Part shown: piece by piece, positions 756 through 12,550 of the stretch
How positions within the stretch are numbered: the stretch's first letter is position 1
Layout of the letters: each line of letters begins with the position of its first letter
IMG/VR virus record: IMGVR_UViG_2609459803_000003
Span: 1-12,550 of that record
DNA length: 12,550 nt
Direction: 5' to 3' (one strand)
Source: a virus
Lineage: Duplodnaviria; Heunggongvirae; Uroviricota; Caudoviricetes
Translations under genes and position numbers: made by a program
Notes under the pieces: model-generated
Told to the model about the DNA's origin: nothing
Database searches by the model: none
The model's input: the letters and a program-made list of their open reading frames with translations, nothing else

Positions 756-1354
756 TTTGCTGCTCCTCATCATATCGACCCTGCAAGGCCGATTAGTTTC
801 TCCACAAAACAGAGAAGAACACCTGCGGTGGCAGCCGCCCGGATGGATTGGTTTATGAGCCCGTCGTCCGGTGATGCTCTTCTCTGTTTTGTAAAAAGAG
901 CGGTACCAGCCGGAAGCAAGGGTACAAACTGGTACCGCCAGGACTACACACAGCATAAAGTTGTGGTGCCGGGTGCCTCCCGGTGCCTGGCGAAGGTTGC
1001 ACACCAGGCGGGTGGGTATCCACAGAAGGTCGACTGTCAGCCTCAACCTTAACCCGCGTGCGCTGAGCCGCATTCACCACAACGCTAAGGATTCTCTTTG
1101 GTTGAAAATACTTAGCTGTTATGTGCCTGTCTTTTCACCACTTCAGGCTCGGTGGTATCCTTTTAAGCCCGTATACATAAAAGGAAAATCAAATGACTTT
1201 TGATGAAAAAGAACTTGATAATGCATTAATAAAATCATCGTAACGTCGCTCTTTTCCTGTCTCAGCGACACTCAGCAGAAACAGTTCTACGAATCGGCTT
1301 TCAACATGATCGAGCGTTGTTGTTTCTGCGATGCCGACGAGTTACCTGAAAAAA

Positions 1355-1630
1355 TCAGGAAACAGTTGGCTGATGCTCTTCGAGTGCGACTTTCTGACCA
1401 ATTTTCTGAAATGTACTCTCCGAATTTGGACAAATAGAAAAAGGCCATTTCCATTCAGGGTCTGATGGAAATACTTCAGCCTGTTCCAAAGCACGGCGTA
1501 AAGAGAACACAACTCCAGCCATAATCTGATGTTTCCCATTGGTCCAGCTATCGCCGCTCTGATCTACAGGGGCGGCTATGTCGTATGACCAAACGACTTC
1601 ACAGTTATTGTTTAAAATCTGGACTTTCAT
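1355..1630 (-). CDS. Hypothetical protein (91 aa) occupying the first leftward (N-gene) position; not N-like
   Basis: ORF-track ORF 1355..1651; I prefer the internal ATG at 1630 because AGGTG lies 6 nt upstream, while the 1651 ATG has no SD and abuts a GTGCC/GGCAC hairpin (1653-1666). Product MKVQILNNNCEVVWSYDIAAPVDQSGDSWTNGKHQ... has protein-like composition and no arginine-rich motif. AT-richer than flanks. Overlapped antisense by a 43-codon plus-strand ORF (1306..1437), so the call is uncertain. Confidence 0.45.
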   Translation of the reverse strand: MKVQILNNNCEVVWSYDIAAPVDQSGDSWTNGKHQIMAGVVFSLRRALEQAEVFPSDPEWKWPFSICPNSESTFQKIGQKVALEEHQPTVS

Positions 1631-1837
1631 TTCATACACCTGCTTTAACATGAGTGCCTAGTGGCACAACATGACTCAACGAATCATCCTGGACTTCATA
1701 TGCCCCAGGCGGCTACTTCGTGGGCGTCCTGCCTGTTCGTTTTTGACATTTACTGACTGCTTACGACACATGCACCGTGTTGCAACCAGATTTTGTTGTA
1801 ATCCTGTAGTTGGTCTGGAACAAAAGATAAAATTAAA

Positions 1838-1874
1838 TTGCGAGATATGCAAGTGATATTTGCGGAATATGCAA
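1838..1874. promoter_or_regulatory. OL-like operator pair: two 15-bp sites TTGCGAGATATGCAA (1838-1852) and TTGCGGAATATGCAA (1860-1874), with a candidate leftward promoter overlapping them
   Basis: Both sites have TTGC-N7-GCAA dyad symmetry and match the 15-mer TTGCGTGATAAGCAA at 2641-2655 on the other side of the repressor gene. Centres are 22 bp apart. On the minus strand TTGCAT, a 17-nt spacer and TATCTT form a plausible sigma70 promoter pointing left. Confidence 0.5.
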
Positions 1875-1881
1875 ATTGATA

Positions 1882-1908
1882 GGTAATAAAAAGCCACCTT
1901 TCGGTGGC
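1882..1908 (-). terminator. Rho-independent terminator downstream of the repressor gene
   Basis: Minus-strand reading: GCCACC-GAAA-GGTGGC perfect 6-bp GC-rich stem with tetraloop, followed immediately by TTTTTATTACC. Located 20 bp after the repressor stop (1928). Confidence 0.7.
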
Positions 1909-1927
1909 CGATGGAAGGATATTGAGG

Positions 1928-2620
1928 TTAATTATGTCTCTTAAGGGTTTGCGACTGACTGATTAAGACCTTTCCAAAGACCATGAATCGGTGTTCGTTT
2001 TCGCTAGTAATTCCCCATTCACGGTAAATCTGGTTATCAGAAATCACCAGCAGTTTGTCAGGAATCATTTGAAGTCTTTTAACGTATATTTTGTCATCAA
2101 AACCAAAGACATATATACCATCACCATCAAACTGATTGATGCTGACATCAACGAAGATGAGATCTCCTGGCTCAATGGTTGGACACATACTGTCCCCACG
2201 AACGTTGATAACTTTGATGTGATTGGCTGGTCGTCCGCCGAACATTGATACAGCATTATCAGTTCTGTATTCGATGGCATGAATCACATCAATGACATCA
2301 CCGCCCTGGATAAGGCCATTTCCCGCACTGGCACTGATATCCAGCATTTCAATACGGAACACATCCTTCACCTGCGCAACATCCTCATCATTACTGTTTT
2401 TATATACAGTATTACTTTTGTGGGCAGAGGTAAAGAGATCAGCAATATCAACACCTAAGCTCTTGGCAATATTACTCAGTGTTTGTTCGGTAAATTGTTT
2501 TTGCTTACCCGTTTCTAAGCGCGAGATGTTCGCCGCATCTACTCCTATTGCTTCAGCGAGATCGGCGATTTTCATGTTCTTCGCTTGGCGAAGTTGTCTG
2601 ACTCGGTTTCCTATGTTCAT
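1928..2620 (-). CDS. cI: cI-like prophage repressor (N-terminal HTH_XRE, C-terminal S24 LexA-like autopeptidase domain)
   Basis: 230-aa ORF. N-terminus MNIGNRVRQLRQAKNMKIADLAEAIGVDAANISRLETGKQ is a classic XRE helix-turn-helix. C-terminal half carries the Ser/Lys dyad context of S24 peptidases (VRGDSMCPTIEPGDLIFVD ... IYVKRLQ). Divergent from a cro-like gene across an operator-bearing intergenic region. No Shine-Dalgarno before the ATG, compatible with a leaderless transcript as for lambda cI. Confidence 0.9.
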   Translation of the reverse strand: MNIGNRVRQLRQAKNMKIADLAEAIGVDAANISRLETGKQKQFTEQTLSNIAKSLGVDIADLFTSAHKSNTVYKNSNDEDVAQVKDVFRIEMLDISASAGNGLIQGGDVIDVIHAIEYRTDNAVSMFGGRPANHIKVINVRGDSMCPTIEPGDLIFVDVSINQFDGDGIYVFGFDDKIYVKRLQMIPDKLLVISDNQIYREWGITSENEHRFMVFGKVLISQSQTLKRHN

Positions 2621-2640
2621 GCGTTTATTACATTTCTTTA

Positions 2641-2717
2641 TTGCGTGATAAGCAAATCAACTTGCGCAAAATAATTGCGTGAAATAACATGCATAACGCG
2701 CAATATTTGGAGGGCGT
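2641..2717. promoter_or_regulatory. OR-like operator/promoter region between divergent repressor and cro-like genes
   Basis: Contains the 15-mer TTGCGTGATAAGCAA (2641-2655), the perfect palindrome TTGCGCAA (2662-2669), and further TTGCG / CGCAA half-sites (2675-2679, 2699-2703). Candidate rightward promoter: TTGCGC (2662-2667), 17-nt spacer, TAACAT (2685-2690), followed by GGAGG (2708-2712) and the cro-like ATG at 2718. Confidence 0.55.
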
Positions 2718-2978
2718 ATGCAATCACCATTACGAAATGTGCGTAAGGCGCATGGTTTCACTTTGCAGCATGTTGCTGCGGGTGTTCAAGTCAATCCAGC
2801 GACGTTGAGTCGTATTGAGAGGCTGGAGCAGATTCCATCTATCGAGCTTGCAGAACGTTTAGCCAATTTTTTTAAGGGTGAAGTCAGCGAAATGCAGATT
2901 CTTTATCCGGCACGTTTTCAATCTAGCCAAAACCAGAATGGGTTTAAACCACAGGAACAGGAGGTGAACCGTGGGTAA
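2718..2978 (+). CDS. cro: Cro-like HTH transcriptional regulator
   Basis: 86-aa ORF with GGAGG 6 nt upstream. N-terminal HTH signature HGFTLQHVAAGVQVNPATLSRIERLEQ. First rightward gene, divergent from the repressor. Confidence 0.8.
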   Translation: MQSPLRNVRKAHGFTLQHVAAGVQVNPATLSRIERLEQIPSIELAERLANFFKGEVSEMQILYPARFQSSQNQNGFKPQEQEVNRG

Positions 2979-3522
2979 GCATCACTGGAAAGTAGAAAAA
3001 CAGCCTGAGTGGTACGTGAAAGCTGTCAGAAAAACTATCGCAGCGTTGCCGGGGGGTTACGCTGAAGCAGCTGACTGGCTGGATGTAACAGAGAACGCAT
3101 TATTTAATCGCCTTCGTGCCGATGGCGATCAAATTTTCCCGCTGGGATGGGCAATGATTTTACAACGTGCTGGTGGAACTCACTTCATTGCTGACGCTGT
3201 GGCGCAGTCTGCAAATGGCGTCTTTGTGTCTCTTCCTGATGTCGAGGATGTGGACAACGCCGATATCAACCAACGTCTGCTGGAAGTCATTGAACAGATC
3301 GGCAGTTATTCAAAACAGATTCGTTCAGCAATTGAAGACGGTGTAGTGGAACCGCATGAGAAGACAGCAATTAACGATGAGCTGTACCTCTCAATTTCGA
3401 AGCTGCAGGAGCATGCAGCACTGGTCTACAAAATTTTTTGCATTTCAGAAAGTAATGACGCCCGCGAGTGTGCAGCTCCGGGCGCCGTGGCGTGTCGTGA
3501 CTGTGGAGAAACTAACGCATGA
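2971..3522 (+). CDS. Early regulatory protein at the cII position (183 aa; cII/YdaT-like by position, not confirmed by sequence)
   Basis: GTG start at 2971 (ORF track shows M) with GGAGGTGA SD 6 nt upstream; overlaps the cro-like stop by 8 nt. Product begins [48 protein letters not shown] and ends in a Cys-rich tail [17 protein letters not shown]. Function inferred from synteny only. Confidence 0.65.
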
Positions 3523-3857
3523 ACAGTTTAACAACACACTACCGTCGCTCGCAACTGATTGCGCTTCCTGTACCGGGTGGAAAAGCGAAGGTGGAGTATT
3601 GCTATGCAGTGAATGTACCAGGTGACAGGGAAATTGTAACCCACAGCTTTGCAGAGTGGGCTGTGGGGGATTTCAACCGGCAGAAGGAGACAGTCCTTTG
3701 CGACAAGTTAACCGCTGGTTCAAAGATCACTACGGAGTGCCCGTCAGAGTCATTCGTTGGGAGCCGGAAACACAACGGGTTATCTACCTCCGCGAAGGCT
3801 ATGAGCATGAGTGCTTCAGCCCGCTCGAACAGTTTCGTCGTAAATTCAGGGAAATAG
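3519..3857 (+). CDS. Hypothetical early protein; the 5' part is well supported, the 3' half of this frame looks non-protein-like (probable frameshift, see findings)
   Basis: ATG at 3519 overlaps the upstream stop (ATGA) and has GGAGAA 8 nt upstream. N-terminal translation [52 protein letters not shown] is protein-like; the remainder (…[22 protein letters not shown]) is Ser-rich low complexity. Confidence 0.5.
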
Positions 3858-3877
3858 AGGTCGGTCATGAGCACTAA
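3626..3877 (+). CDS. Alternative-frame ORF overlapping the 3' half of 3519..3857; probably the true C-terminal reading frame of the same gene
   Basis: Frame open from 3626 (ORF track lists it from a GTG at 3656). Translation ...[58 protein letters not shown] is protein-like. Stop TAA 3875-3877 overlaps the next gene start by 11 nt. No convincing SD of its own. Confidence 0.4.
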
Positions 3878-4484
3878 ATTAACCGGCTATGTATGGGATG
3901 GTTGCGCTGCATCAGGCATGAAATTATCCAGCGTGGCAGTTATGGCCCGCCTGGCTGATTTCAGTAATGACGAAGGTGTGTGCTGGCCATCAATTGAAAC
4001 CATTGCCCGCCAGATTGGCGCGGGGATGAGTACCGTCAGAACGGCTATCGCACGGCTGGAAGCAGAAGGCTGGTTAACGCGTAAGGCGCGTCGCCAGGGT
4101 AACCGCAATGCGTCGAATGTTTATCAGCTTAACGTTGCGAAGCTTCAGGCAGCGGCATTTTCTCAACTGTCAGATTCTGACCCGTCAAAATCTGACGCAT
4201 CAAAATCTGACCCGTCAAAATTTGATGCGTCGAAATCTGGCAAAAAAGCGGGTTTTCACCCGTCAGAATCTGGCGGGGATCCGTCAGTAAAATCAAAACA
4301 TGATCCGTCAGATAAAAAAACTTCTCGTCCGGACGCTTCGCAACCGGACACGCAGACGGATGAACAGGATTTTTTAACTCGCCATCCTGATGCGGTTGTA
4401 TTCAGCCCTAAAAAGCGCCAGTGGGGAACGCAGGATGATTTGACCTGCGCACAGTGGCTCTGGAAAAAAATCATCGCCCTGTAA
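3867..4484 (+). CDS. Replication initiator, lambda O-like (N-terminal HTH DNA-binding domain plus iteron-encoding linker); C-terminal domain apparently missing
   Basis: 205-aa ORF with GAGG 9 nt upstream. N-terminus [70 protein letters not shown] is a winged-HTH replication-initiator type. Middle encodes SDPSKSDASKSDPSKFDASKS from a tandem DNA repeat, as the lambda O gene carries ori iterons internally. Only about 45 codons follow the repeat region before the stop, abutting a rusA remnant. Confidence 0.8.
   Translation: MSTKLTGYVWDGCAASGMKLSSVAVMARLADFSNDEGVCWPSIETIARQIGAGMSTVRTAIARLEAEGWLTRKARRQGNRNASNVYQLNVAKLQAAAFSQLSDSDPSKSDASKSDPSKFDASKSGKKAGFHPSESGGDPSVKSKHDPSDKKTSRPDASQPDTQTDEQDFLTRHPDAVVFSPKKRQWGTQDDLTCAQWLWKKIIAL
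4171..4320. repeat. Iteron array / candidate origin of replication embedded in the O-like gene
   Basis: Four tandem 15-bp units (TCTGACCCGTCAAAA 4176-4190, TCTGACGCATCAAAA 4191-4205, TCTGACCCGTCAAAA 4206-4220, TTTGATGCGTCGAAA 4221-4235), then further CCGTCAG motifs at 4260, 4281 and 4305, and an A-run (4311-4320). GACGCATCA (4194-4202) and TGATGCGTC (4224-4232) are exact inverse complements. Confidence 0.65.
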
Positions 4485-4485
4485 C

Positions 4486-4665
4486 CGGATCCGCGATCTG
4501 GACAACTATAACAAGGCGCTGTTTGACGCCCTGACCCACGCGGGTGTGTGGGAAGACGACAGTCAGGTGAAAAGAATGCTGGTGGAGTGGGGACCGGTTA
4601 TCCCGGAAGGGAAGGTCGAGATCACTATCAGTAAGTACGAGAAACCGGCGGGTGCAGCCGCCTGA
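4486..4665 (+). pseudogene. rusA: rusA (Holliday-junction resolvase) 3' remnant lacking start codon and N-terminal half
   Basis: Frame open only from the stop at 4441-4443, with no start codon before the internal Met. Translation RIRDLDNYNKALFDALTHAGVWEDDSQVKRMLVEWGPVIPEGKVEITISKYEKPAGAAA resembles the C-terminal part of E. coli RusA as I recall it (…[28 protein letters not shown]…). Stop TGA 4663-4665. Confidence 0.7.
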
Positions 4666-4684
4666 TTAAGAGGAGAAACGAAGT

Positions 4685-5482
4685 ATGAATAATCTGATGG
4701 TTATTGATGGTATTGAAGTTCGTCGTGATGCTTATGGGCGTTACAGCCTGAACGATCTGCACAGGGCTGCCGGTTCTCTGGATAAGCATAAGCCTGCATT
4801 CTGGCTCCGCAATGAGCAAACTGAACGTTTAATAAGCGAGTTGCAAATTTGCAACTCGGTCAATATAGAGCCAGTTAACGTTATTCGTGGCGGAAATAAC
4901 CAGGGGACGTATGTCTGCAAAGAACTGGTGTATGCCTATGCAATGTGGATCAGCCCGTCATTCCATCTGAAGGTGATCCGTACTTTCGATATGGTAACCA
5001 GCACACCTGAAAAATTATCCGGGCAGGCTGCTGACAAGATGCAGGCTGGCGTGATCCTGCTGGACTTTATGCGCCGGGAATTAAACCTGTCTAACTCATC
5101 AGTGCTTGGAGCCTGTCAGAAGCTTCAGGAGGCTGTTGGCTTACCGAATCTGGCACCGCGCTATGCCATTGATGCTCCTGCTGATGCACACGATGGCTCA
5201 AGTCGCCCGACACTGTCACTGAGTGCACTGCTGAAACAGTATGGTATCCGCCTGACGGCTAATCAGGCATATCACCAGATGGTGAAGCTGGGGATCGTCG
5301 AGCAGCGCGAACGATACAGCCGTACCGCGATTAACAACATCAAAAAATTCTGGTCGCTGACAGCGAAAGGCTGCATGTTCGGCAAGAACATCACCAGTCC
5401 CGCAAATCCGCGCGAGACGCAGCCGCATTTCTTCGAGTCCCGATTCCCTGAGCTGTTAAAGCTGCTCGATACCGTTCATTGA
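4685..5482 (+). CDS. KilA-N domain protein (antirepressor-like), C-terminal domain of unknown function
   Basis: 265-aa ORF with AAGAGGAGAAA SD before the ATG. N-terminal 100 aa (…YGRYSLNDLHRAAG…KPAFWLRNEQTERLI…VIRGGNNQGTYVCKELVYAYAMWISPSFHLKVIRTFD) matches the KilA-N signature from memory. Confidence 0.8.
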   Translation: MNNLMVIDGIEVRRDAYGRYSLNDLHRAAGSLDKHKPAFWLRNEQTERLISELQICNSVNIEPVNVIRGGNNQGTYVCKELVYAYAMWISPSFHLKVIRTFDMVTSTPEKLSGQAADKMQAGVILLDFMRRELNLSNSSVLGACQKLQEAVGLPNLAPRYAIDAPADAHDGSSRPTLSLSALLKQYGIRLTANQAYHQMVKLGIVEQRERYSRTAINNIKKFWSLTAKGCMFGKNITSPANPRETQPHFFESRFPELLKLLDTVH

Positions 5483-5483
5483 G

Positions 5484-6479
5484 GTGACCGTGAGAGCACT
5501 ACTGACCCCTGAAATTGCCCCGCGTATGGGGATCGTTTTGTTCAGACCAGGTTCAGAGCTGATGCCCCTGTTTATGCAGGGGCGTGTCCTGCTGGAGCCT
5601 GAGCCGGAACGTTATTCATCTTTCGCCAGTGGTGCCGTTCCGGCGGCATCACAACCGCTGGCGGATGATCCTGCCGTTCGGGCCGTGTTCCGCAATGAGG
5701 CAGTGATCCGTCGTGCTGGTGGCGTGGAATGTCTTGAAAGCTGGTTACTTCGTGAAAAAGGCTGCCAGTGGCCTCATTCCGACTGGCACAGCGAGAACAT
5801 GACCACAATGCGACACGCTCCGGGCGCAATCCGTCTGTGCTGGCACTGCGATAACCAGCTGCGCGATCAGTTCACGGAACGGCTGGAATCAATGGCAACG
5901 GATAACTGTGCCCGCTGGGTGTTGTCTGTTGTGCGTCGGGATCTTGGTTTTGATGACAGTCACGTTGTGACAATGCCGGAACTGTGCTGGTGGCTGGTTC
6001 GTAATGATCTGGCGGATGCCTTACCGGAAAGCGCAGCCCGTAAGGCACTGAGATTACCGAAGCCTGTTGTGCAGGCGGTCACCCGGGAAAGTGACCTTGT
6101 ACCTTCGGTTCCTGCCACCAGCATTATCCAGGATAAAGCGAAAAAGGTGCTGGCGCTGAAAGTGGATCCGGAGTCGCCGGAGTCTTTTATGTTACGCCCA
6201 AAACGCCGCCGCTGGGTTAATGAAAAGTACACGCGCTGGGTTAAGACACAGCCGTGTGCATGTTGTGGAAAGCCTGCTGATGATCCCCACCACCTGATAG
6301 GTCACGGTCAGGGTGGAATGGGTACAAAAGCGCATGACCTCTTTGTGTTGCCTTTGTGCAGAAAGCATCACGACGAGCTGCATGCGGATACCGTGGCATT
6401 TGAAGAGAAGTATGGCTCCCAACTGGAGCTGATATTTCGTTTTATCGATCGCGCGCTGGCGATTGGTGTGTTGGCCTGA
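5484..6479 (+). CDS. DUF968-like protein (YdfU family) with C-terminal HNH-like Cys/His motif
   Basis: 331-aa ORF. C-terminus …WVKTQPCACCGKPADDPHHLIGHGQGGMGTKAHDLFVLPLCRKHHDELHAD has a C-x-CC…HH…H…C…HH…H zinc-finger/HNH-like pattern. Start is GTG at 5484 (track shows M), 1 nt after the upstream stop with no clear SD, so the start is uncertain (translational coupling or a downstream ATG at 5526). Sits immediately upstream of Q, as ydfU does in Qin-type prophages. Confidence 0.65.
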   Translation: MTVRALLTPEIAPRMGIVLFRPGSELMPLFMQGRVLLEPEPERYSSFASGAVPAASQPLADDPAVRAVFRNEAVIRRAGGVECLESWLLREKGCQWPHSDWHSENMTTMRHAPGAIRLCWHCDNQLRDQFTERLESMATDNCARWVLSVVRRDLGFDDSHVVTMPELCWWLVRNDLADALPESAARKALRLPKPVVQAVTRESDLVPSVPATSIIQDKAKKVLALKVDPESPESFMLRPKRRRWVNEKYTRWVKTQPCACCGKPADDPHHLIGHGQGGMGTKAHDLFVLPLCRKHHDELHADTVAFEEKYGSQLELIFRFIDRALAIGVLA

Positions 6480-6496
6480 TTTGGTGGAGAAAGTTG

Positions 6497-6862
6497 ATGC
6501 GTGATATTCAGATGGTTCTGGAGCGTTGGGGAGCATGGGCGGCGAGTGATAGTTCTGGAGTAGACTATTCGCCTATAGCTGCTGGGTTTAAGGGGCTTCT
6601 TCCCTACACAAGCAAAACACGTCAGGCTTGTTCAGATAGTGATGCATTAATTATTGAAGGTTGTCTTGCTCGTCTAAAGCAAAAAAAGCCAGATGAGCAC
6701 TCGCTGCTTGTGGCACATTATTTATACAGAATATCCAAGCGTAAGATTGCAAAGGTGCGTGGAAAGGATGAAAAATTGGTACGCATAGAAATACAACTAG
6801 CCGAAGGATTTATTGATGGTTGCCTTTCAATGTTGGATGTTAACCTTGAAATGGACGCTTAG
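6497..6862 (+). CDS. Q: Late-gene antiterminator Q
   Basis: ATG at 6497 with GGAG 7 nt upstream (the track ORF begins 3 nt earlier at a TTG). Product MRDIQMVLERWGAWAASDSSGVDYSPIAAGFKGL…CLARLKQKKPDEHSLLVAHYLY…IQLAEGFIDGCLSMLDVNLEMDA closely resembles the Qin-type Q (QuuQ) as I recall it. Lies upstream of the lysis cassette. Confidence 0.75.
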   Translation: MRDIQMVLERWGAWAASDSSGVDYSPIAAGFKGLLPYTSKTRQACSDSDALIIEGCLARLKQKKPDEHSLLVAHYLYRISKRKIAKVRGKDEKLVRIEIQLAEGFIDGCLSMLDVNLEMDA

Positions 6863-6869
6863 GGTTGCA

Positions 6870-6897
6870 CAGGTTGGCCCCATATGAGGCCAACCTG
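6870..6897. terminator. Perfect 10-bp inverted repeat hairpin between convergent Q and cargo cassette (bidirectional terminator-like, no U-tract)
   Basis: CAGGTTGGCC (6870-6879), loop CCATATGA, GGCCAACCTG (6888-6897). Sits exactly between the Q stop (6860-6862) and the minus-strand stop at 6898-6900. No T-run on either side, so function as an intrinsic terminator is uncertain. Confidence 0.4.
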
Positions 6898-7347
6898 TCA
6901 CAAGTGGGGGAAGATTTTTCGTAACACTAACCAACACCTTCCGAAGGTATATAGCGAAATTATAAGGGAGGATAAGCCTAACAGTATGAATAGGAAATCA
7001 ATAGGTTTGCCCGCAACAATAACATCATCAGGTAGAAACATCGCTATCAATGGAAATATACATGCGACGATGAGAGTTAACCCTGTTGAAAGTAATCTAT
7101 TTACCAGAGTTGGTAACACGTTGTTTTGCTTAAGGGCATTAATTGCTCCTTCCTTATCGCTGTTTGCACTACTAAATATAGATATTGCAGCCAGAACAAA
7201 ACCAAACAGGATGCCTGATATAGTCGAGAGCACCCCCGCTGTTGTGAGTACGTCAGCATGCTTCATCGGTTTAAACAGTTTTGTCGCTGCATAGGTCAAC
7301 AGAATCCAGAGGACGCATTTCCAGAGAAAAGTGGCTAATTCTCTCAT
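6898..7347 (-). CDS. Small inner-membrane protein with four predicted transmembrane helices (RexB-like topology); second gene of the cargo cassette
   Basis: Track ORF 6898..7359; the ATG at 7347 has GGAGGA 4-5 nt upstream, the ATG at 7359 has none. Hydrophobic segments by eye: LATFLWKCVLWILLTYAATKLF, VLTTAGVLSTISGILFGFVLAAISIFS, LSTGLTLIVACIFPLIAMFL, IDFLFILLGLSSLIISLYTF. AT-rich. Starts 10-22 nt after the stop of the upstream 313-aa gene. Confidence 0.7.
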   Translation of the reverse strand: MRELATFLWKCVLWILLTYAATKLFKPMKHADVLTTAGVLSTISGILFGFVLAAISIFSSANSDKEGAINALKQNNVLPTLVNRLLSTGLTLIVACIFPLIAMFLPDDVIVAGKPIDFLFILLGLSSLIISLYTFGRCWLVLRKIFPHL

Positions 7348-7368
7348 TGTGTCCTCCATGCTTGGTTA

Positions 7369-8310
7369 TTAGTCTCTGCTAGCGAGCTCATACTGTGCAA
7401 GATAGTTCGCGTTATCAATTTTAGCAGATATCATCGCCGTTCTGATATCAGAATCGGATGGATAACCGCTTTTGACAATGATTGTCTTTGTACTGACCAA
7501 TACTTGGTCAAGTAGACTTTTGGGCGTTCTATTGGATGGCTCTGTTACATCAATTTTTTTAATTTTTAGACCTCCAGAACCTTTTGGAAAAAGTTCAAGT
7601 AGTTCCTTAATAGCATCGGTGACAGAAGTTTTTAGATAGTTAAACCCTTGTTTTTTCGGGCGAATCCGACCTCGCATATTTAATCTTAGATGCGACCCGC
7701 CCATACCAACAACCATGTCAATAATTTCATTAGCTAAAGGGTTTTTAATCTTATAATTAGCTTTGTTAAAGTTTCTTGGAGCAGCAACTATAAGATCGAA
7801 ACTACGTAGGATATTTCCGTCCTCAAGCAGTTCCTTCATGCTCTCTTGTTTCCAAATGGCTTCAAAAGTGACGCTTTTTAAATCAGTTTTGTTATACAAA
7901 ATGAATGCCAGATCATTTACTTTGGGCCCTATATGGTTGAGGGTCATAGCTAATAAGTCCGTTTCGTAGTAATAGATAAAATATGTTCTTTCAACTACAG
8001 AATCTTTATCATTTAAAGGAATTGTTCTCTCACTACCTGTAGCATCCTCGATGAACGGTAGTAGGCATTCCCTTCTCCACGATACGTAACCAAAGTAACA
8101 TTGCAGTGTGGTATCTTTTTGAAGAATAACTAACTTTAACCCTCGATTTGGGGTGTCTGTTGTGTAAGTTATTGGAAAAGTTACAGTATCTGCTGTGGTC
8201 ATTTGCTCAAAGGCTAGTTTTGCAGCAGATGTGCCATCTTTTTTGCTTCCATTACCAGTGAAAAAACCAACTCTCACTCGCCTGGTTTTATTCTTATTTT
8301 CTGTACTCAT
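7369..8310 (-). CDS. Hypothetical soluble protein (313 aa), first gene of the antisense cargo cassette; no recognisable catalytic motif
   Basis: Long minus-strand ORF with protein-like composition: MSTENKNKTRRVRVGFFTGNGSKKDGTSAAKLAFEQM…ERTYFIYYYETDLLAMTLNHIGPKVNDLAFILYNKTD…IIDMVVGMGGSHLRLNMRGRIRPKK… No Walker A, HNH, DEDD or similar motif seen by eye. Double stop TAATAA. AT-rich against GC-richer phage flanks. Weak SD (GGA) before the ATG at 8310. Confidence 0.75.
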   Translation of the reverse strand: MSTENKNKTRRVRVGFFTGNGSKKDGTSAAKLAFEQMTTADTVTFPITYTTDTPNRGLKLVILQKDTTLQCYFGYVSWRRECLLPFIEDATGSERTIPLNDKDSVVERTYFIYYYETDLLAMTLNHIGPKVNDLAFILYNKTDLKSVTFEAIWKQESMKELLEDGNILRSFDLIVAAPRNFNKANYKIKNPLANEIIDMVVGMGGSHLRLNMRGRIRPKKQGFNYLKTSVTDAIKELLELFPKGSGGLKIKKIDVTEPSNRTPKSLLDQVLVSTKTIIVKSGYPSDSDIRTAMISAKIDNANYLAQYELASRD

Positions 8311-8433
8311 TATCGATCCGAAATAATTTTAGCAACCGTGTGAAAAATACAACAAAAAAAAGAGGAAATCATTAGCGCGGTCCGCAAAAAACATTGTAAT
8401 CTGTTAAGAGTGGTTACTTCGCCACACAGCTTA

Positions 8434-8460
8434 AACCCGCCGTCGAGCGGGTTTTGTCGT
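8434..8460 (+). terminator. Rho-independent terminator upstream of the lysis genes (tR'-like)
   Basis: AACCCGC (8434-8440), loop CGTCGA, GCGGGTT (8447-8453), then TTTTGTCGTTTCTG. Plus-strand orientation, about 150 bp upstream of the holin start, as lambda tR' precedes S. Confidence 0.6.
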
Positions 8461-8606
8461 TTCTGTGGCTGGGGATTCGTTGGTCCTGGCCTATTCCGCA
8501 GTTCTCCATCGGTTCGGCTTCTTTGATGTTTCCGCTTCTGATTTGCGGTACATGATGTTCCCTCAATTTGCACCTGCTGTATCAGCGAGGTGAGAGATAA
8601 CTACAA

Positions 8607-8933
8607 ATGCCTCATAACCCAAATACCTGGCTGGAGTTGGTCCAGAGCTGGTGGCGTGGAGACACACCGCTGGGCGCAGTGATTATGTCGATCGTTATGG
8701 CTGGCTTGCGCATTGCCTATTTTGGCGGTGGTGGTGGCTGGAAACGAAAAACGCTCGAGATTTTGCTCTGTGGTGCTCTGACGCTGACTTTTGCATCCGC
8801 TCTTGAGTATGTCGGATGGCCTAAATCTCTTTCTGTTGCCATTGGTGGCGGCGTTGGGCTGATCGGGGTCGATGCTATTCGTGGGGCTGCAATGAGAGTA
8901 ATCGGTAATAAGTTTGGTGGCTCTAAGGAGTAA
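8607..8933 (+). CDS. S: Holin (lambda S-like class I, three predicted TM segments)
   Basis: 108-aa ORF immediately upstream of the endolysin. Three hydrophobic segments (LGAVIMSIVMAGLRIAYF; TLEILLCGALTLTFASAL; LSVAIGGGVGLIGVDAI) and a charged C-terminus, same length class as lambda S. Confidence 0.8.
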   Translation: MPHNPNTWLELVQSWWRGDTPLGAVIMSIVMAGLRIAYFGGGGGWKRKTLEILLCGALTLTFASALEYVGWPKSLSVAIGGGVGLIGVDAIRGAAMRVIGNKFGGSKE

Positions 8934-8936
8934 TTT

Positions 8937-9413
8937 ATGCAGGTACTAAATTCCCAGCGTAAAGCTTTCCTGGATATGGTGGCATGGTCAGAAGGAACGG
9001 ATAACGGGCGACAACCGACACGTAACCACGGTTATGACGTTATTGTCGGTGGCGAACTCTTCACTGATTACTCCGATCACCCTCGCAAACTTGTCACGCT
9101 AAACCCGAAACTCAAATCAACAGCTGCAGGCCGTTATCAACTTCTTTCACGTTGGTGGGATGCTTACCGCAAGCAGCTTGGGCTGAAAGACTTCTCTCCC
9201 AGAAGCCAGGACTCAGTGGCATTACAGCAGATTAAAGAGCGTGGCGCTTTACCGATGATTGATCGCGGCAATATTCGTCAGGCAATCGACCGTTGCAGCA
9301 ATATCTGGGCGTCTTTACCTGGTGCAGGTTACGGTCAGTATGAACATAAAATTGGCGACCTGATTTCCCGGTTTAAAGAGGCTGGTGGGGTGGTAAATGA
9401 AGCTGAGATATAA
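8937..9413 (+). CDS. R: Endolysin, lambda R-type lytic transglycosylase
   Basis: 158-aa product MQVLNSQRKAFLDMVAWSEGTDNGRQPTRNHGYDVIVGGELFTDYSDHPRKLVTLNPKLKSTAAGRYQLLSRWWDAYRKQLGLKDFSP… is near-identical over most of its length to lambda R as I recall it, including the catalytic-Glu context WSEGTD. Confidence 0.95.
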   Translation: MQVLNSQRKAFLDMVAWSEGTDNGRQPTRNHGYDVIVGGELFTDYSDHPRKLVTLNPKLKSTAAGRYQLLSRWWDAYRKQLGLKDFSPRSQDSVALQQIKERGALPMIDRGNIRQAIDRCSNIWASLPGAGYGQYEHKIGDLISRFKEAGGVVNEAEI

Positions 9414-9789
9414 GCTGGTTATTGTTGCCTTCTTTGTTACCGTCATTGGTTCCTTCATCTGGTCTGCCGGGCATTACTACAGCAAATATCTGCACGAAAA
9501 GGAGCGTGCTGATGAGGCTATACGAAATGCTGAATCAGCAACTGCCATTACCCGTAACGTTCTGCAATCACTGCAAATCATCAATACAGTTATAGAGGCT
9601 AACCAGCATGCAAAACAGCAGATTGCACTGGAGTCACAGAAAACCCAGGAAGATATCAAAGTGGCTGTTGCGGATGATGATTGTGCTTCACGTCCTGTGC
9701 CTGCTGCCGCTGCTGACCGGTTGCGGAAGTACGCGGACAGTTTACGTGAACACTCCGGCGGTACCACTGCCAGCCAGCTTGACTTCTGA
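9397..9789 (+). CDS. Rz: Rz-type i-spanin (inner-membrane spanin subunit)
   Basis: ATG at 9397 overlaps the endolysin 3' end. N-terminal signal-anchor MKLRYKLVIVAFFVTVIGSFIW followed by a charged, helix-prone periplasmic region. Position and architecture are typical; at 130 aa it is shorter than lambda Rz (153 aa). Confidence 0.8.
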   Translation: MKLRYKLVIVAFFVTVIGSFIWSAGHYYSKYLHEKERADEAIRNAESATAITRNVLQSLQIINTVIEANQHAKQQIALESQKTQEDIKVAVADDDCASRPVPAAAADRLRKYADSLREHSGGTTASQLDF

Positions 9790-9922
9790 TACACCTGTAC
9801 CGTTTATACCCAACCCACTGACGTATGGTGCAAGTCTTGATTTGAATGTAAGTTTGTTATCCGCGTTGGCTCAATGTAATAGGGATAAGTCTGATATCAG
9901 AATCATTGATAATCAAAATTGA
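9674..9922 (+). CDS. Rz1: Rz1-type o-spanin lipoprotein, starting inside Rz in the +1 frame and extending beyond the Rz stop
   Basis: Within track ORF 9608..9922; start placed at ATG 9674 (or 9677), giving MMIVLHVLCLLPLLTGCGS… with lipobox LLTG|C. Mature part is Pro-rich (TPAVPLPASLTSDTPVPFIPNPLTY) like lambda Rz1. The ORF continues 133 nt past the Rz stop into AT-rich sequence. Confidence 0.65.
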   Translation: MMIVLHVLCLLPLLTGCGSTRTVYVNTPAVPLPASLTSDTPVPFIPNPLTYGASLDLNVSLLSALAQCNRDKSDIRIIDNQN

Positions 9923-10125
9923 TGTATATTTTTATCGTCATGTAGATAACGAACAAGGTATTCCTCTGATACGTTTCGTTGAATACAGGTCATGGGTAGG
10001 CATTGCAATATCGCTTCGAAATTATCTGTGATAATGCTCTTAATTTTGAATGTATGTATTTGGGAAAAGAGATAAAGTAATAGTCTAATTAATGGAGATA
10101 TCCACAAAACACAAAAGGGACTATT

Positions 10126-10632
10126 ATGCGACCAGATCAATTTTTCTATCCAGATACTTTTACCTTTAATTCATCCACCTATTATGGTCAACGTGACTCA
10201 TCTAAAGGTCGATTGTATATTCCTATTGAAAGTGACTTATGTCCATTTAATATCGGCGATATCATTGTGCAAAAAATGGTCGACAGGGAAAGACTATTTG
10301 AAGTGCTTGATTACGAGGTGCAAATTAGTCTCGAGGCTGGTTGCCCTGGCTACTCACATTTGGCGGTATTGATAGTGAATGCATTGGATGTAAAAGAGAA
10401 GCCGAAGCAGATTACGACCCATTTGACGTTTAACGGTGCTATTAATGCTGGTGGTGATTTTCAAGCCGGTAATGACAATTCGATCACAAAGAATATAACC
10501 ATTCAACAACTACATGATGCTATAGAGCATTGCAATGATCCAGAGGTTAAAAGCCTTTGGCAAAAGCTATTGGAAAATCCGACGTTTGCTTCAATTGCTT
10601 CAATATTGGCAAAAAGTGCTTTAGGACAGTAA
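10126..10632 (+). CDS. Hypothetical protein (168 aa), AT-rich orphan cargo gene between lysis and packaging modules
   Basis: ORF with AAAGGGA before the ATG. Product MRPDQFFYPDTFTFNSSTYYGQRDSSKGRLYIPIESDLCPFNIGDIIVQKMVDRERLFEVLDYEVQ… has no TM segments and no motif I recognise. Preceded by about 200 bp of AT-rich non-coding DNA and followed by its own terminator. Confidence 0.7.
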   Translation: MRPDQFFYPDTFTFNSSTYYGQRDSSKGRLYIPIESDLCPFNIGDIIVQKMVDRERLFEVLDYEVQISLEAGCPGYSHLAVLIVNALDVKEKPKQITTHLTFNGAINAGGDFQAGNDNSITKNITIQQLHDAIEHCNDPEVKSLWQKLLENPTFASIASILAKSALGQ

Positions 10633-10640
10633 TTCATCAA

Positions 10641-10666
10641 GCCCCATTCAATATGGGGTTTTTATG
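10641..10666 (+). terminator. Rho-independent terminator after the 168-aa cargo gene
   Basis: CCCCAT (10642-10647), loop TCAAT, ATGGGG (10653-10658), then TTTTTTAT; 9 nt after the stop at 10630-10632. Confidence 0.7.
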
Positions 10667-10689
10667 CTTATTACAAAGAGTTTTCTTCA

Positions 10690-11040
10690 ATGCCACCACG
10701 AACTCCAAAAGCCTGCCGTGTTCGCGGGTGCCGCCGTACCACCACTGACCCGTCAGGTTATTGCGAAAGCCACAAAAGCGAAGGCTGGAAGCAATACAAG
10801 CCAGGACAATCCCGTCATCAGCGCGGCTACGGTTCGAAGTGGGACGTTATCCGCGCGCGTGTGCTGAAACGTGACAAAGGTTTATGTCAGTTATGTCTGC
10901 GCGCTGGTGTGGTGCGTGAGGCGAAAACTGTTGACCACATCATCCCTAAAGCGCATGGCGGCACTGATGCCGACTGTAATCTGCAGAGTCTGTGCTGGCC
11001 GTGTCATAAGGCGAAGACGGCCCGTGAACGGCTTAAGTGA
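10690..11040 (+). CDS. HNH endonuclease (packaging-associated, adjacent to small terminase)
   Basis: 116-aa product with HNH motif …CQLCLRAGVVREAKTVDHIIPKAHGGTDADCNLQSLCWPCHKAKT… Placement next to the terminase small subunit is typical of HK97-like cos phages. Confidence 0.9.
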   Translation: MPPRTPKACRVRGCRRTTTDPSGYCESHKSEGWKQYKPGQSRHQRGYGSKWDVIRARVLKRDKGLCQLCLRAGVVREAKTVDHIIPKAHGGTDADCNLQSLCWPCHKAKTARERLK

Positions 11041-11066
11041 TAATAATTCTCAACTGTCTGAGGGGA

Positions 11067-11127
11067 GGGGCGGGTCAAATCTCTGCGGCCTGACGTCTTC
11101 AGGACTGCCCGCCCCATCGTTTTTTTA
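11067..11127 (+). other. GC-rich compound hairpin followed by a T7 run: terminator after the HNH gene and/or candidate cos/packaging site
   Basis: GGGGCGGG (11067-11074) pairs with CCCGCCCC (11108-11115), enclosing a nested CCTGA/TCAGG hairpin (11089-11103), followed by TTTTTTT (11120-11127). Located between the HNH and small terminase genes, where HK97-like genomes place their ends. Confidence 0.45.
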
Positions 11128-11165
11128 TACCCGCGAAAAATGAAATTTAACCAGGAGTGCCGCAT

Positions 11166-11486
11166 ATGGCTGGAACGGCGGGGCGTTCCGGGCGTCGCCC
11201 TAAGCCAACGGCGCGCAAGGCGCTGGCCGGAAACCCCGGCAAGCGAGCCCTGAACAAAGATGAACCTGTTTTTACGCCCATCAAAGGTGTTGAGCCACCG
11301 GAGTGGTTCGCTGAAGAAGAGCTTCCTCTCCCCGAACAGAAAAAAATCGAAAGAGTCCTGCGTGATGTCGGACTCTCCCGCACCCAGGCCAAAGCATTCA
11401 TGGCCGGGGGCTATAGCGCACTGTCCCTGCGCGACGCTGAGGATGTGGGCTCTGCACTGAATGCACTGAAAAATCTGAACTTCTAA
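11166..11486 (+). CDS. Terminase small subunit, P27 family
   Basis: ATG at 11166 with AGGAG 8 nt upstream (track ORF starts at a GTG at 11157). Product MAGTAGRSGRRPKPTARKALAGNPGKRALNKDEPVFTPIKGVEPPEWF… matches the P27-family N-terminal signature from memory. Confidence 0.85.
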   Translation: MAGTAGRSGRRPKPTARKALAGNPGKRALNKDEPVFTPIKGVEPPEWFAEEELPLPEQKKIERVLRDVGLSRTQAKAFMAGGYSALSLRDAEDVGSALNALKNLNF

Positions 11487-11500
11487 TCAGGAGAAATACG

Positions 11501-12550
11501 ATGGCGGTTGATATTAAAGATGTCGAACAGGTCGCGCAGGAGCTGCAGCAGAAGTTTGACGACTTCAAAGCAAAGAACGACAAGCGCGTGGATGCGATTG
11601 AGCAGGAAAAAGGCAAGCTTGCCGGGCAGGTGGAAACCCTGAACGGGAAACTCAGCGAGCTGGAAAATCTCAAAAGCGACCTTGAAAAAGAGCTGCTTGA
11701 GCTGAAACGTCCGGCTGGTGGAGCGCAAAATAAACTGGCCACCGAGCATAAAGAGGCGTTTGTGGGCTTCCTGCGTAAAGGCCGTGAAGACGGTCTGCGC
11801 GATCTGGAGCGTAAGGCATTGCAGGTGGGTACCGATGAAGACGGTGGCTACGCCGTGCCGGAAGAACTGGATCGCAACATTCTTAACCTGCTGAAAGATG
11901 AAGTGGTGATGCGTCAGGAAGCCACGGTGATCACCGTTGGCGGTTCCGACTACAAAAAACTGGTGAATCTGGGCGGTACGGCTTCCGGATGGGTGGGGGA
12001 AACGGATACGCGATCCCAGACTGCCACCTCCAGACTGGAGCTGATTGAACCTCTCATGGGGGAAATTTACGGCAACCCGCAGGCTACCCAGAAAATGCTG
12101 GACGATGCCTTCTTCAACGTGGAGGCCTGGATCAACAGCGAGCTGGCAACCGAATTTGCCGAACAGGAAGAAATTGCCTTTACCTCAGGCGATGGCACCA
12201 AGAAGCCGAAAGGGTTCCTGGCGTATGAATCCACTGATGAAACCGACAAGGTCCGGGCGTTCGGCAAACTTCAGCATATTGTATCCGGCGAAGCGACCGC
12301 GGTGACCGCAGACGCCATTATCAAACTGATTTACACGCTGCGTAAGGCACACCGCACTGGCGCGAAGTTCATGATGAACAACAACAGCCTGTTTGCCATC
12401 CGTCTGCTTAAAGACAGCGAGGGTATTCGCCTTGGTTGCTCATACCAGGCCTCCGGTATTCTAAAGGGGAAAATAAGAGTGCGTTGCGAGAGTGCTGATG
12501 CTTTTTTAAACGTTAAGCATAGTCGGCGACAGCAGGAGGATTATTCTTAA
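11501..12550 (+). CDS. Major capsid protein, HK97 family (with N-terminal coiled-coil delta domain); 3' end aberrant, probably truncated or disrupted
   Basis: AGGAGA SD 7 nt before the ATG. N-terminal 100 aa is coiled-coil-like (MAVDIKDVEQVAQELQQKFDDFKAKNDKRVDAIEQEKGKLAGQVETLNGKLSELENLKSDLEKELLEL). The body contains …GAKFMMNNNSLFAIRLLKDSEG…, resembling the HK97 gp5 segment …HNIALLKDNEGRYIFGG… After about position 12435 the translation (CSYQASGILKGKIRVRCESADAFLNVKHSRRQQEDYS) no longer resembles capsid and stops at the window end. Confidence 0.75.
   Translation: MAVDIKDVEQVAQELQQKFDDFKAKNDKRVDAIEQEKGKLAGQVETLNGKLSELENLKSDLEKELLELKRPAGGAQNKLATEHKEAFVGFLRKGREDGLRDLERKALQVGTDEDGGYAVPEELDRNILNLLKDEVVMRQEATVITVGGSDYKKLVNLGGTASGWVGETDTRSQTATSRLELIEPLMGEIYGNPQATQKMLDDAFFNVEAWINSELATEFAEQEEIAFTSGDGTKKPKGFLAYESTDETDKVRAFGKLQHIVSGEATAVTADAIIKLIYTLRKAHRTGAKFMMNNNSLFAIRLLKDSEGIRLGCSYQASGILKGKIRVRCESADAFLNVKHSRRQQEDYS

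Follow-up and report, generated by a model that had tools for sequence, protein, structure and literature searches.

An ORF listing and Pfam searches of the window (the whole stretch of 12,550 nucleotides analysed here) gave a lambdoid layout, with the following features from left to right.

First in window order: early-left genes of the yfdQ/yfdP type
1928-2620, minus strand: CI-like repressor of the S24 family, full length
After the repressor: Cro-like gene, full length
After the Cro-like gene: ymfL
After ymfL: HTH_36 replication-type gene, truncated, ending at junction A
4482-4484: deletion junction A, truncated HTH_36 gene joined to rusA codon 70; 1,996 bp lost, exchange at TA
Further on: KilA-N gene, then DUF968 gene, then antiterminator Q (Q full length)
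6898-8310, minus strand, after Q: two cargo (moron) genes
After the cargo genes: holin, endolysin and spanin lysis genes, full length
Between spanin and HNH gene: ORF of 168 aa
10690-11040, plus strand: intact HNH endonuclease gene (PF01844, E=5e-15), packaging-associated, upstream of cos and terS
11106-11115, plus strand: intact cos cohesive end TGCCCGCCCC, the same as the 10-nt cohesive end of SfI
11157 or 11166 to 11486, plus strand: ORF of 109 or 106 aa with two possible starts
11166-11486, plus strand: the 106-aa version of this ORF, a chimera of TerS residues 1-55 fused in frame to prohead-protease residues 166-216
11329-11333: deletion junction B, where terS codon 55/56 meets codon 165/166 of the protease gene
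11501-12550, plus strand: ORF of 349 aa with a Phage_capsid match
11501-12425, plus strand: 5' part of an HK97-family major capsid gene (925 nt, codons 1-308)
12421-12425: deletion junction C, where capsid codon 308 meets codon 7/8 of host paoA; 5-bp microhomology GGGTA
12421-12443, minus strand: paoA stub, the first 23 nt of the gene, with its ATG at 12443 (paoA CDS start, position 6023 of the host locus L003), 100% identical to the E. coli chromosome
12444-12550: paoA-yagU intergenic DNA, which supplies most of the 41 foreign residues and the TAA in the capsid frame

The HNH gene (351 nt) has the same length in intact relatives. The two cargo genes and the 168-aa ORF gave nothing in searches with PADLOC, Pfam and NCBIfam, and matched only PHROGs of unknown function.

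From position 1166 to 12550, the window is 100% identical to contig JNMQ01000004.1 from the draft assembly of E. coli 3-373-03_S3_C3 (GCA_000700425.1). Intact prophages cover 88% of the window at 98% identity. One of these intact relatives, in NZ_CM142674.1 (locus L002), is bounded by tRNA-Thr (thrW, beside proA) on one side and by an attR repeat of 48 bp on the other, and its late genes are ordered HNH, terS, terL, ymfR, portal, protease, capsid, connectors, Mu-like tail and pinE. A look-up with a 98-aa protein of the window returned only other prophages, mostly next to proA in the thrW-type arrangement. The viable phage SfI also integrates at thrW next to proA and is packaged from cos, and its 10-nt cohesive end was determined experimentally (PMC3636060). 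The ends of the SfI genome align at the window cos; the region with the HNH gene, cos and terS is 92% identical to SfI, with an identical cohesive end, and the protease-capsid segment is 99.5% identical. The intact relatives share the gene order of SfI and sit at the same place in the chromosome.

By homology, synteny and the shared cos, the element groups with the SfI/SfV-like thrW lambdoid prophages (also SfII and SfIV), which have a lambdoid early region, an HK97/phiP27-type head, a Mu-like contractile tail, thrW integration and cos packaging. The window is very probably the right-hand part of a defective ('grounded') member of this group in the E. coli chromosome. Integration of this element at thrW is likely, judging from where its relatives sit and from how near paoA-yagU lies to thrW. 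The left end, with int, attL and thrW, lies outside the window, about at whose start the source contig also begins.

We compared window positions 10600-12550 with 5,426 complete E. coli genomes by megablast, which split this region into three blocks with breaks at 11329 and 12425. The block at 10100-11330 was 100% identical, with zero mismatches, to genes annotated as hypothetical, HNH and terminase small subunit P27 family in the NZ_CM142674.1 prophage. The block at 11329-12425 was 100% identical to the genes for 'HK97 family prohead protease' and 'phage major capsid protein' of intact prophages. Junction B was placed from the block boundaries and a three-way alignment with L002. Compared with this relative, which is 100% identical on both flanks, 3,967 bp have been lost (L002 16009-19975), comprising the 3' part of terS, terL, ymfR, the portal gene and the 5' part of the protease gene. 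An earlier sequence-only reading had put the loss of essential genes from the packaging and head module at about 4 kb, which agrees well with this length. The canonical order on which it relied (small terminase, large terminase, portal, protease, capsid) is likewise seen in SfI and in the intact E. coli prophages, as terS-terL-(ymfR)-portal-protease-capsid. However, the first junction does not start at 11486, as that reading had it. The true scar lies approximately 155 nt further left, inside the upstream ORF. Its parents are ...GAGCTTCCTCTC/GCCACG on the terS side and ...GGGGAAATC/CCCGAAC on the protease side (the slash marks the crossover), and the window reads ...CTTCCTCTCCCCGAAC, with the exact microhomology TC (imperfect TCsCC).

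The ORF that spans junction B starts at the native terS ATG (11166) and ends at the native protease stop, as its prefix and suffix are identical to the intact proteins. The 14-nt gap between this stop (11486) and the capsid ATG (11501) is the native protease-capsid spacer and contains no junction. An ORF thus does end directly before the capsid gene, as had been noticed, but it is a chimera with the protease and not an intact small terminase. Intact TerS carries Terminase_4 (PF05119) at residues 57-147 and TIGR01558 at 44-158, and the intact protease of 216 aa carries Peptidase_S78 (PF04586) at residues 14-159. Neither the 106-aa nor the 109-aa version of the ORF had any match in Pfam or NCBIfam searches, because Terminase_4 and Peptidase_S78 were both deleted. 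With only residues 1-55 kept, the chimera falls outside the P27 TerS family (PF05119, TIGR01558), and with only residues 166-216 kept, it lacks the catalytic domain of the prohead proteases (PF04586, TIGR01543). The joining of a TerS half to a protease half also explains its split PHROG matches, with PHROG 83 (terminase small subunit) matching residues 1-50 and PHROG 22327 matching residues 55-106. Given the missing domains, the chimera is probably the non-functional product of a pseudogene. In HK97, the C-terminal tail of the protease may serve to target it to the capsid, an idea that carries no evidential weight here.

The 349-aa ORF is an HK97-family capsid protein by profile match, as the sequence-only reading had proposed. 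It matches PF05065 (E=6.2e-45) at model positions 1-189 of 280 only and TIGR01554 (E=7e-74) at positions 2-293 of 385 only, and does not contain a complete, fold-spanning domain. The capsid protein of the intact relative covers both models in full (Pfam 1-280 and TIGRFAM 2-385). Residues 1-308 are identical to those of the intact 401-aa capsid proteins of NZ_CM142674.1 and NZ_CP075472.1, and the divergence begins exactly after LKDSEG (residue 308, nt 12424), with the 93 C-terminal residues (309-401) missing. The break after LKDSEG and the shortfall of about 90 residues had thus been read correctly from the letters, whereas the position given for it, about 12435, was slightly too far right. Solved HK97-fold capsids align with the intact capsid protein along its whole length (6TB9, E=4e-76, residues 31-400), and the lost residues 309-401 match the conserved residues 294-385 of the RcGTA capsid 6TB9 and Pfam model positions 190-280. 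The truncated protein is probably non-functional, as part of its domain is missing.

A three-way alignment with the intact capsid gene (L002) and the host locus (L003) defined junction C in the window. The capsid parent is ...GACAGCGAGGGTA/ACTATC and the host parent ...CTTCGGGGTA/TTCGCC, and GGGTA (12421-12425) is common to both. After residue 308, the capsid frame continues for 41 unrelated residues, from antisense paoA and intergenic DNA, to a chance TAA stop at 12548-12550. In the opposite direction, the paoA stub now reads MSNQGEYPRCL* into antisense capsid DNA. More than 3,000 genomes match positions 12421-12550 at 100% identity, with the 5' end of paoA and the adjoining spacer before yagU. 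The source contig continues downstream with yagU, ykgJ, the ecp operon and ykgM/O. No IS element was found at junctions B and C or in the downstream flank of the source contig, and neither a transposon end nor a target-site duplication was found at either junction. An att site at the right end was considered and rejected: no match of at least 14 nt to the 3' half of thrW, and hence no copy of the thrW core, was found in the window or in 9 kb downstream, and host genes follow directly. The element is accordingly not flanked by a pair of thrW att sites: the 48-bp attR of the intact relative has no counterpart here, and attL and int fall outside the window. As the last 125-130 bp are 100% host DNA, they mark a deletion junction and, at the same time, today's boundary between phage and host. 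The sequence-only reading had offered these as alternatives for the replaced 3' end of the capsid gene, and both are true.

In the intact relative, the genes lost at junction C (all connector and tail genes, together with attR) occupy approximately 18.2 kb. On the host side, at least the 4.8-kb paoABCD operon is gone. Deletion C is therefore estimated at approximately 23 kb or more, a figure that does not include the ancestral stretch between attR and paoD in this lineage. A tblastn search with 12 head and tail proteins against the window and 9 kb downstream found only three fragments, and no homology to terL, portal, connector, sheath, tube or tape-measure proteins was detected there; the large terminase and portal genes are thus not encoded elsewhere within this range. 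Compared with SfI and SfV, the element is without TerS residues 56-164, TerL, YmfR, the portal protein, protease residues 1-165, capsid residues 309-401, the connector and tail genes and attR, and no gtr genes were seen; no particles should be possible. By length and sequence, the CI-like repressor, Cro, Q, the holin, endolysin and spanin, the HNH endonuclease and cos have all been retained intact. A phage backbone without particle genes and attR is characteristic of a cryptic or grounded prophage. From its gene content, the remnant would be unable to package DNA, to build heads or tails, or to excise, as attR is gone. It matches the published picture of grounded prophages, in which att sites are resected and genes are progressively deleted (PMC6379469).

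With high confidence, we regard this arrangement as the outcome of ordinary prophage decay by illegitimate recombination and not as a new packaging design. Independent deletions at microhomologies of 2-5 bp very probably shortened the prophage. Each deletion was probably a single microhomology-mediated event, for which slipped mispairing or alternative end joining would fit: the microhomology is short and there are no mobile-element ends or att sites. Deletion B, from terS codon 56 to protease codon 165, removed the functional domain of TerS, terL, ymfR, the portal gene and the catalytic domain of the protease, and by chance left an in-frame chimera of 106 aa upstream of the native spacer. Deletion C would have run rightward from capsid codon 309 through the remaining head genes, the entire Mu-like tail module, attR and host DNA to paoA codon 7/8.

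The exact chimera and the exact 349-aa ORF occur together in GCA_000700425.1, GCA_000700245.1 and GCA_016676935.1, and junctions B and C also recur base for base in three or more Logan read sets that were assembled independently. The contiguous arrangement of B and C was absent from the 5,426 complete E. coli genomes searched by megablast. No full-length capsid homologue with this exact C-terminus turned up, which would have spoken against a truncation; the 349-aa protein is confined to the assemblies of one lineage. The variant in GCA_016676935.1 (ERR3328832) has both B and C and, rightward of window position 8585, differs by 1 base over approximately 12.9 kb. To the left, the region corresponding to window 1742-8584 has largely been replaced, partly by sequence of 95-96% identity and partly by unrelated sequence, and a cluster of mismatches at 8438-8584 marks the exchange boundary. 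The shared junctions and the exchanged left arm indicate that the remnant has been passed down within a single narrow lineage, where its recombination with other prophages continues. In IMG/VR, no alternative partners were found for the terS site (B) or the capsid site (C), and B and C therefore appear to be one-off events.

Junction A differs from this pattern. It reads ...CCCTGTA/ACCGGATCC, and the rusA TA at which it formed is a recurrent, fixed breakpoint in many unrelated prophages. Among unrelated complete genomes and contigs of IMG/VR, at least 10 different left partners meet rusA at this same base, and each of these partners has TA at the crossover in its native sequence. The complementary half, ...CCTCCGGATA/, was joined to six right partners, which represent rightward deletions into KilA-N, endolysin and tail genes. 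Two neighbouring control positions had no variant partners. In an unbiased sample, rusA was intact at the hotspot position in 115 of 117 loci. Matches to the rusA junction variants numbered zero in the GTDB representative genomes, and a metagenome scan yielded no new rusA partners. The site is an imperfect, TA-centred dyad, TCCGGA-TA-aCCGGA. A secondary site of the Pin invertase is not supported, as the pix sites of the intact relative (TTCTCCCAAACCAAGGTTT) are unlike the rusA site. The hotspot may point to a specific activity that breaks or recombines DNA and thereby influences how prophages decay. As junction A lies at a recurrent TA breakpoint, not all decay in the element is random.

The question is then whether junctions B and/or C arose by the same TA-centred, site-specific activity as the rusA junction, or through a transposable element that has since departed. 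The range of partners at the fixed rusA TA, set against none at the two control positions, lends some weight to this, as does the crossover at ...GGGTA in both parents of junction C. We nevertheless consider such directed breakage unlikely. Junction B has no TA, the capsid and terS sites lack any alternative partner in IMG/VR, and the joins carry neither an IS or transposon end nor a target-site duplication. For junction C a directed event is conceivable, but recurrence lends it no support. It is similarly very unlikely that the scars are non-neutral, whether through helper-dependent packaging or interference from the orphan cos or through TA-centred directed deletion in this prophage family. 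If they were, a superinfecting SfI/SfV-like phage whose terminase has matching specificity could package from the orphan cos into yagU and the ecp fimbrial operon. This would amount to lateral or specialised transduction, with host DNA beginning only 1.4 kb away from cos and the HNH gene. Alternatively, the N-terminal TerS peptide and the capsid fragment with its N-terminal scaffolding region could poison helper assembly.

A related proposal is that the remnant is a functional reduced module, either a satellite resembling PICIs or capsid-forming PICIs (cf-PICIs), or an anti-phage decoy against SfI/SfV-like helpers. The cos, the HNH endonuclease, the N-terminal TerS peptide and a capsid fragment with its scaffolding (delta) region would then hijack or poison helper assembly, a scheme that we regard as highly improbable. 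The element does have a surface likeness to these satellites in its short head and packaging set (HNH, 'TerS' and 'capsid') without tail genes. The cos, the HNH gene and good ribosome-binding sites were kept, the chimera is in frame, and the remnant has survived in a lineage in which recombination later exchanged the left arm. However, unlike in PICIs, the genes of the window are truncated fragments of a full prophage: both ORFs are plain truncations with 100% DNA identity to a complete prophage and with no divergence or adaptation, and the tail of the capsid ORF comes from reading through into antisense host DNA. The terL, portal and protease genes are missing, and in place of satellite hallmarks the element has a lambdoid backbone of CI, Cro, ymfL, KilA-N, DUF968, Q and lysis genes. 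An in-frame fusion is expected by chance in one of three cases, and the arrangement occurs in few assemblies only and in 0 of the 5,426 complete genomes.

That the joins at 11329-11333 and 12421-12425 are false, formed when prophage repeats collapsed in a short-read assembly, is scarcely credible: the source is a draft whose contig begins about at the window start, a sibling assembly breaks at window position 4547 and a single genome can carry related prophage DNA in as many as 8 places, but identical junctions recur in three NCBI assemblies and at least three independent Logan read sets, at junction C the phage DNA meets host sequence that is unique and not a second repeat, and microhomologies of 2-5 bp are far too short to collapse an assembly graph.

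As a product of ordinary decay, the element resembles the K-12 prophages e14, CPS-53/KplE1 and CP4-6, which are defective remnants that kept regulatory and lysis genes and lost morphogenesis genes and att sites. Homologous genes carry names from e14 and CPS-53 (ymfL, ymfR, yfdN-T and pinE), and CP4-6 presumably occupies the thrW locus next to the pao operon. Unlike the K-12 cryptic prophages, the element has lineage-specific deletion end points, and one of its deletions exits into the host and removes paoABCD. Prophage decay of this kind is already well known; the present locus adds an example of grounding and whittling that is resolved to the base and includes host gene loss. The rusA TA hotspot may be worth a dedicated survey. 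The locus also contains two annotation traps: the 106-aa chimera is recorded in GenBank as 'phage major capsid, HK97 family domain protein', and the 349-aa read-through from capsid gene into host DNA is named as a normal capsid protein.

Three deletion scars mark this decayed prophage, and one of them lies at a position where other prophages have also recombined.

4482-4484: junction A, the third deletion scar, which joins the HTH_36 gene to rusA codon 70; 1,996 bp lost

The lost segment comprised the 3' third of the HTH_36 replication-type gene, PerC/yfdN, a Dam methylase gene, a LexA-like gene and rusA codons 1-69. The position of junction A is a fixed breakpoint that was used repeatedly, as also seen in sequence records L005, L026, L027, L073, L100 and L148-L162. 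In unrelated prophages, the TA within the rusA dyad TCCGGA-TA-ACCGGA has at least 10 distinct left partners and 6 distinct right partners, and a TA is present at the exchange point in 11 of the 12 partners with readable native sequence. No variant partners were seen at two control positions near the breakpoint. Within the truncated HTH_36 protein, upstream of the scar, there is a tandem SDPSKSDASKSDPSKFDASKS-type repeat (4170-4290), and the DNA repeats that encode it may be the origin iterons of a replication module that is now disabled.

The other two scars, junction B (terS start to prohead-protease end, 11329-11333) and junction C (capsid gene to host paoA, 12421-12425), are also found in a sister variant of this remnant (L005/L010; GCA_016676935.1, ERR3328832). 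This variant is nearly identical to the window right of 8585, and its left arm is mostly exchanged relative to 1742-8584: the immunity region there is of the P22_Cro type, and the cargo is an SDH-family protease. In this variant, ymfL is joined to rusA (CTTCCTGTA|ACCGGATCC) at the rusA base that junction A uses. CCTGTA occurs twice in the window (3568-3573 and 4478-4483), and the sister junction could be derived from the window type via this repeat. The left arm of the sister variant recurs in IMG/VR contig L150, whose late-region deletion differs and extends from terL to the tail fibre genes.

In the window, the interval between Q and the holin gene is occupied by two cargo genes:

6898-7359, minus strand: cargo gene 1, encoding a 153-aa putative membrane protein
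7369-8310, minus strand: cargo gene 2, encoding a 313-aa protein

These genes match PHROGs 8552 and 7651, both without an assigned function. Neither gene yielded anything from PADLOC or NCBIfam, or a Pfam match above the curated cut-off; the sole Pfam match of the 153-aa protein is a weak, sub-threshold one to DUF4064. Relatives fill this slot with an SDH-family protease, a KAP NTPase, DUF262, an MBL-fold hydrolase or methyltransferases. Given these differing contents, the slot appears to be a variable hotspot for accessory or defence genes.

Two further features lie towards the right end of the window:

11041-11165: cos region, intact, with the cos 10-mer at 11106-11115
12410-12443, minus strand: paoA remnant, with the promoter region, ribosome-binding site and first 7 codons kept

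The cos region contains the cohesive end of Shigella flexneri phage SfI, TGCCCGCCCC, shows 0 mismatches to the intact prophage (NZ_CM142674.1) and adjoins an intact HNH gene. Host DNA (yagU-ecp) lies ~1.4 kb from this orphan cos, which a related helper phage might exploit. This E. coli lineage has lost the host periplasmic aldehyde oxidoreductase operon, paoABCD, from this locus, and the paoA stub now encodes MSNQGEYPRCL*, running into antisense capsid DNA.

The GenBank names of the two fused ORFs (HAW2039272.1, KDT75528.1, KDU12673.1) are misleading. The TerS'-'protease chimera (11166-11486) is labelled 'phage major capsid, HK97 family domain protein', and the capsid-host read-through ORF (11501-12550) is labelled 'phage major capsid protein, HK97 family', with its truncation unflagged.
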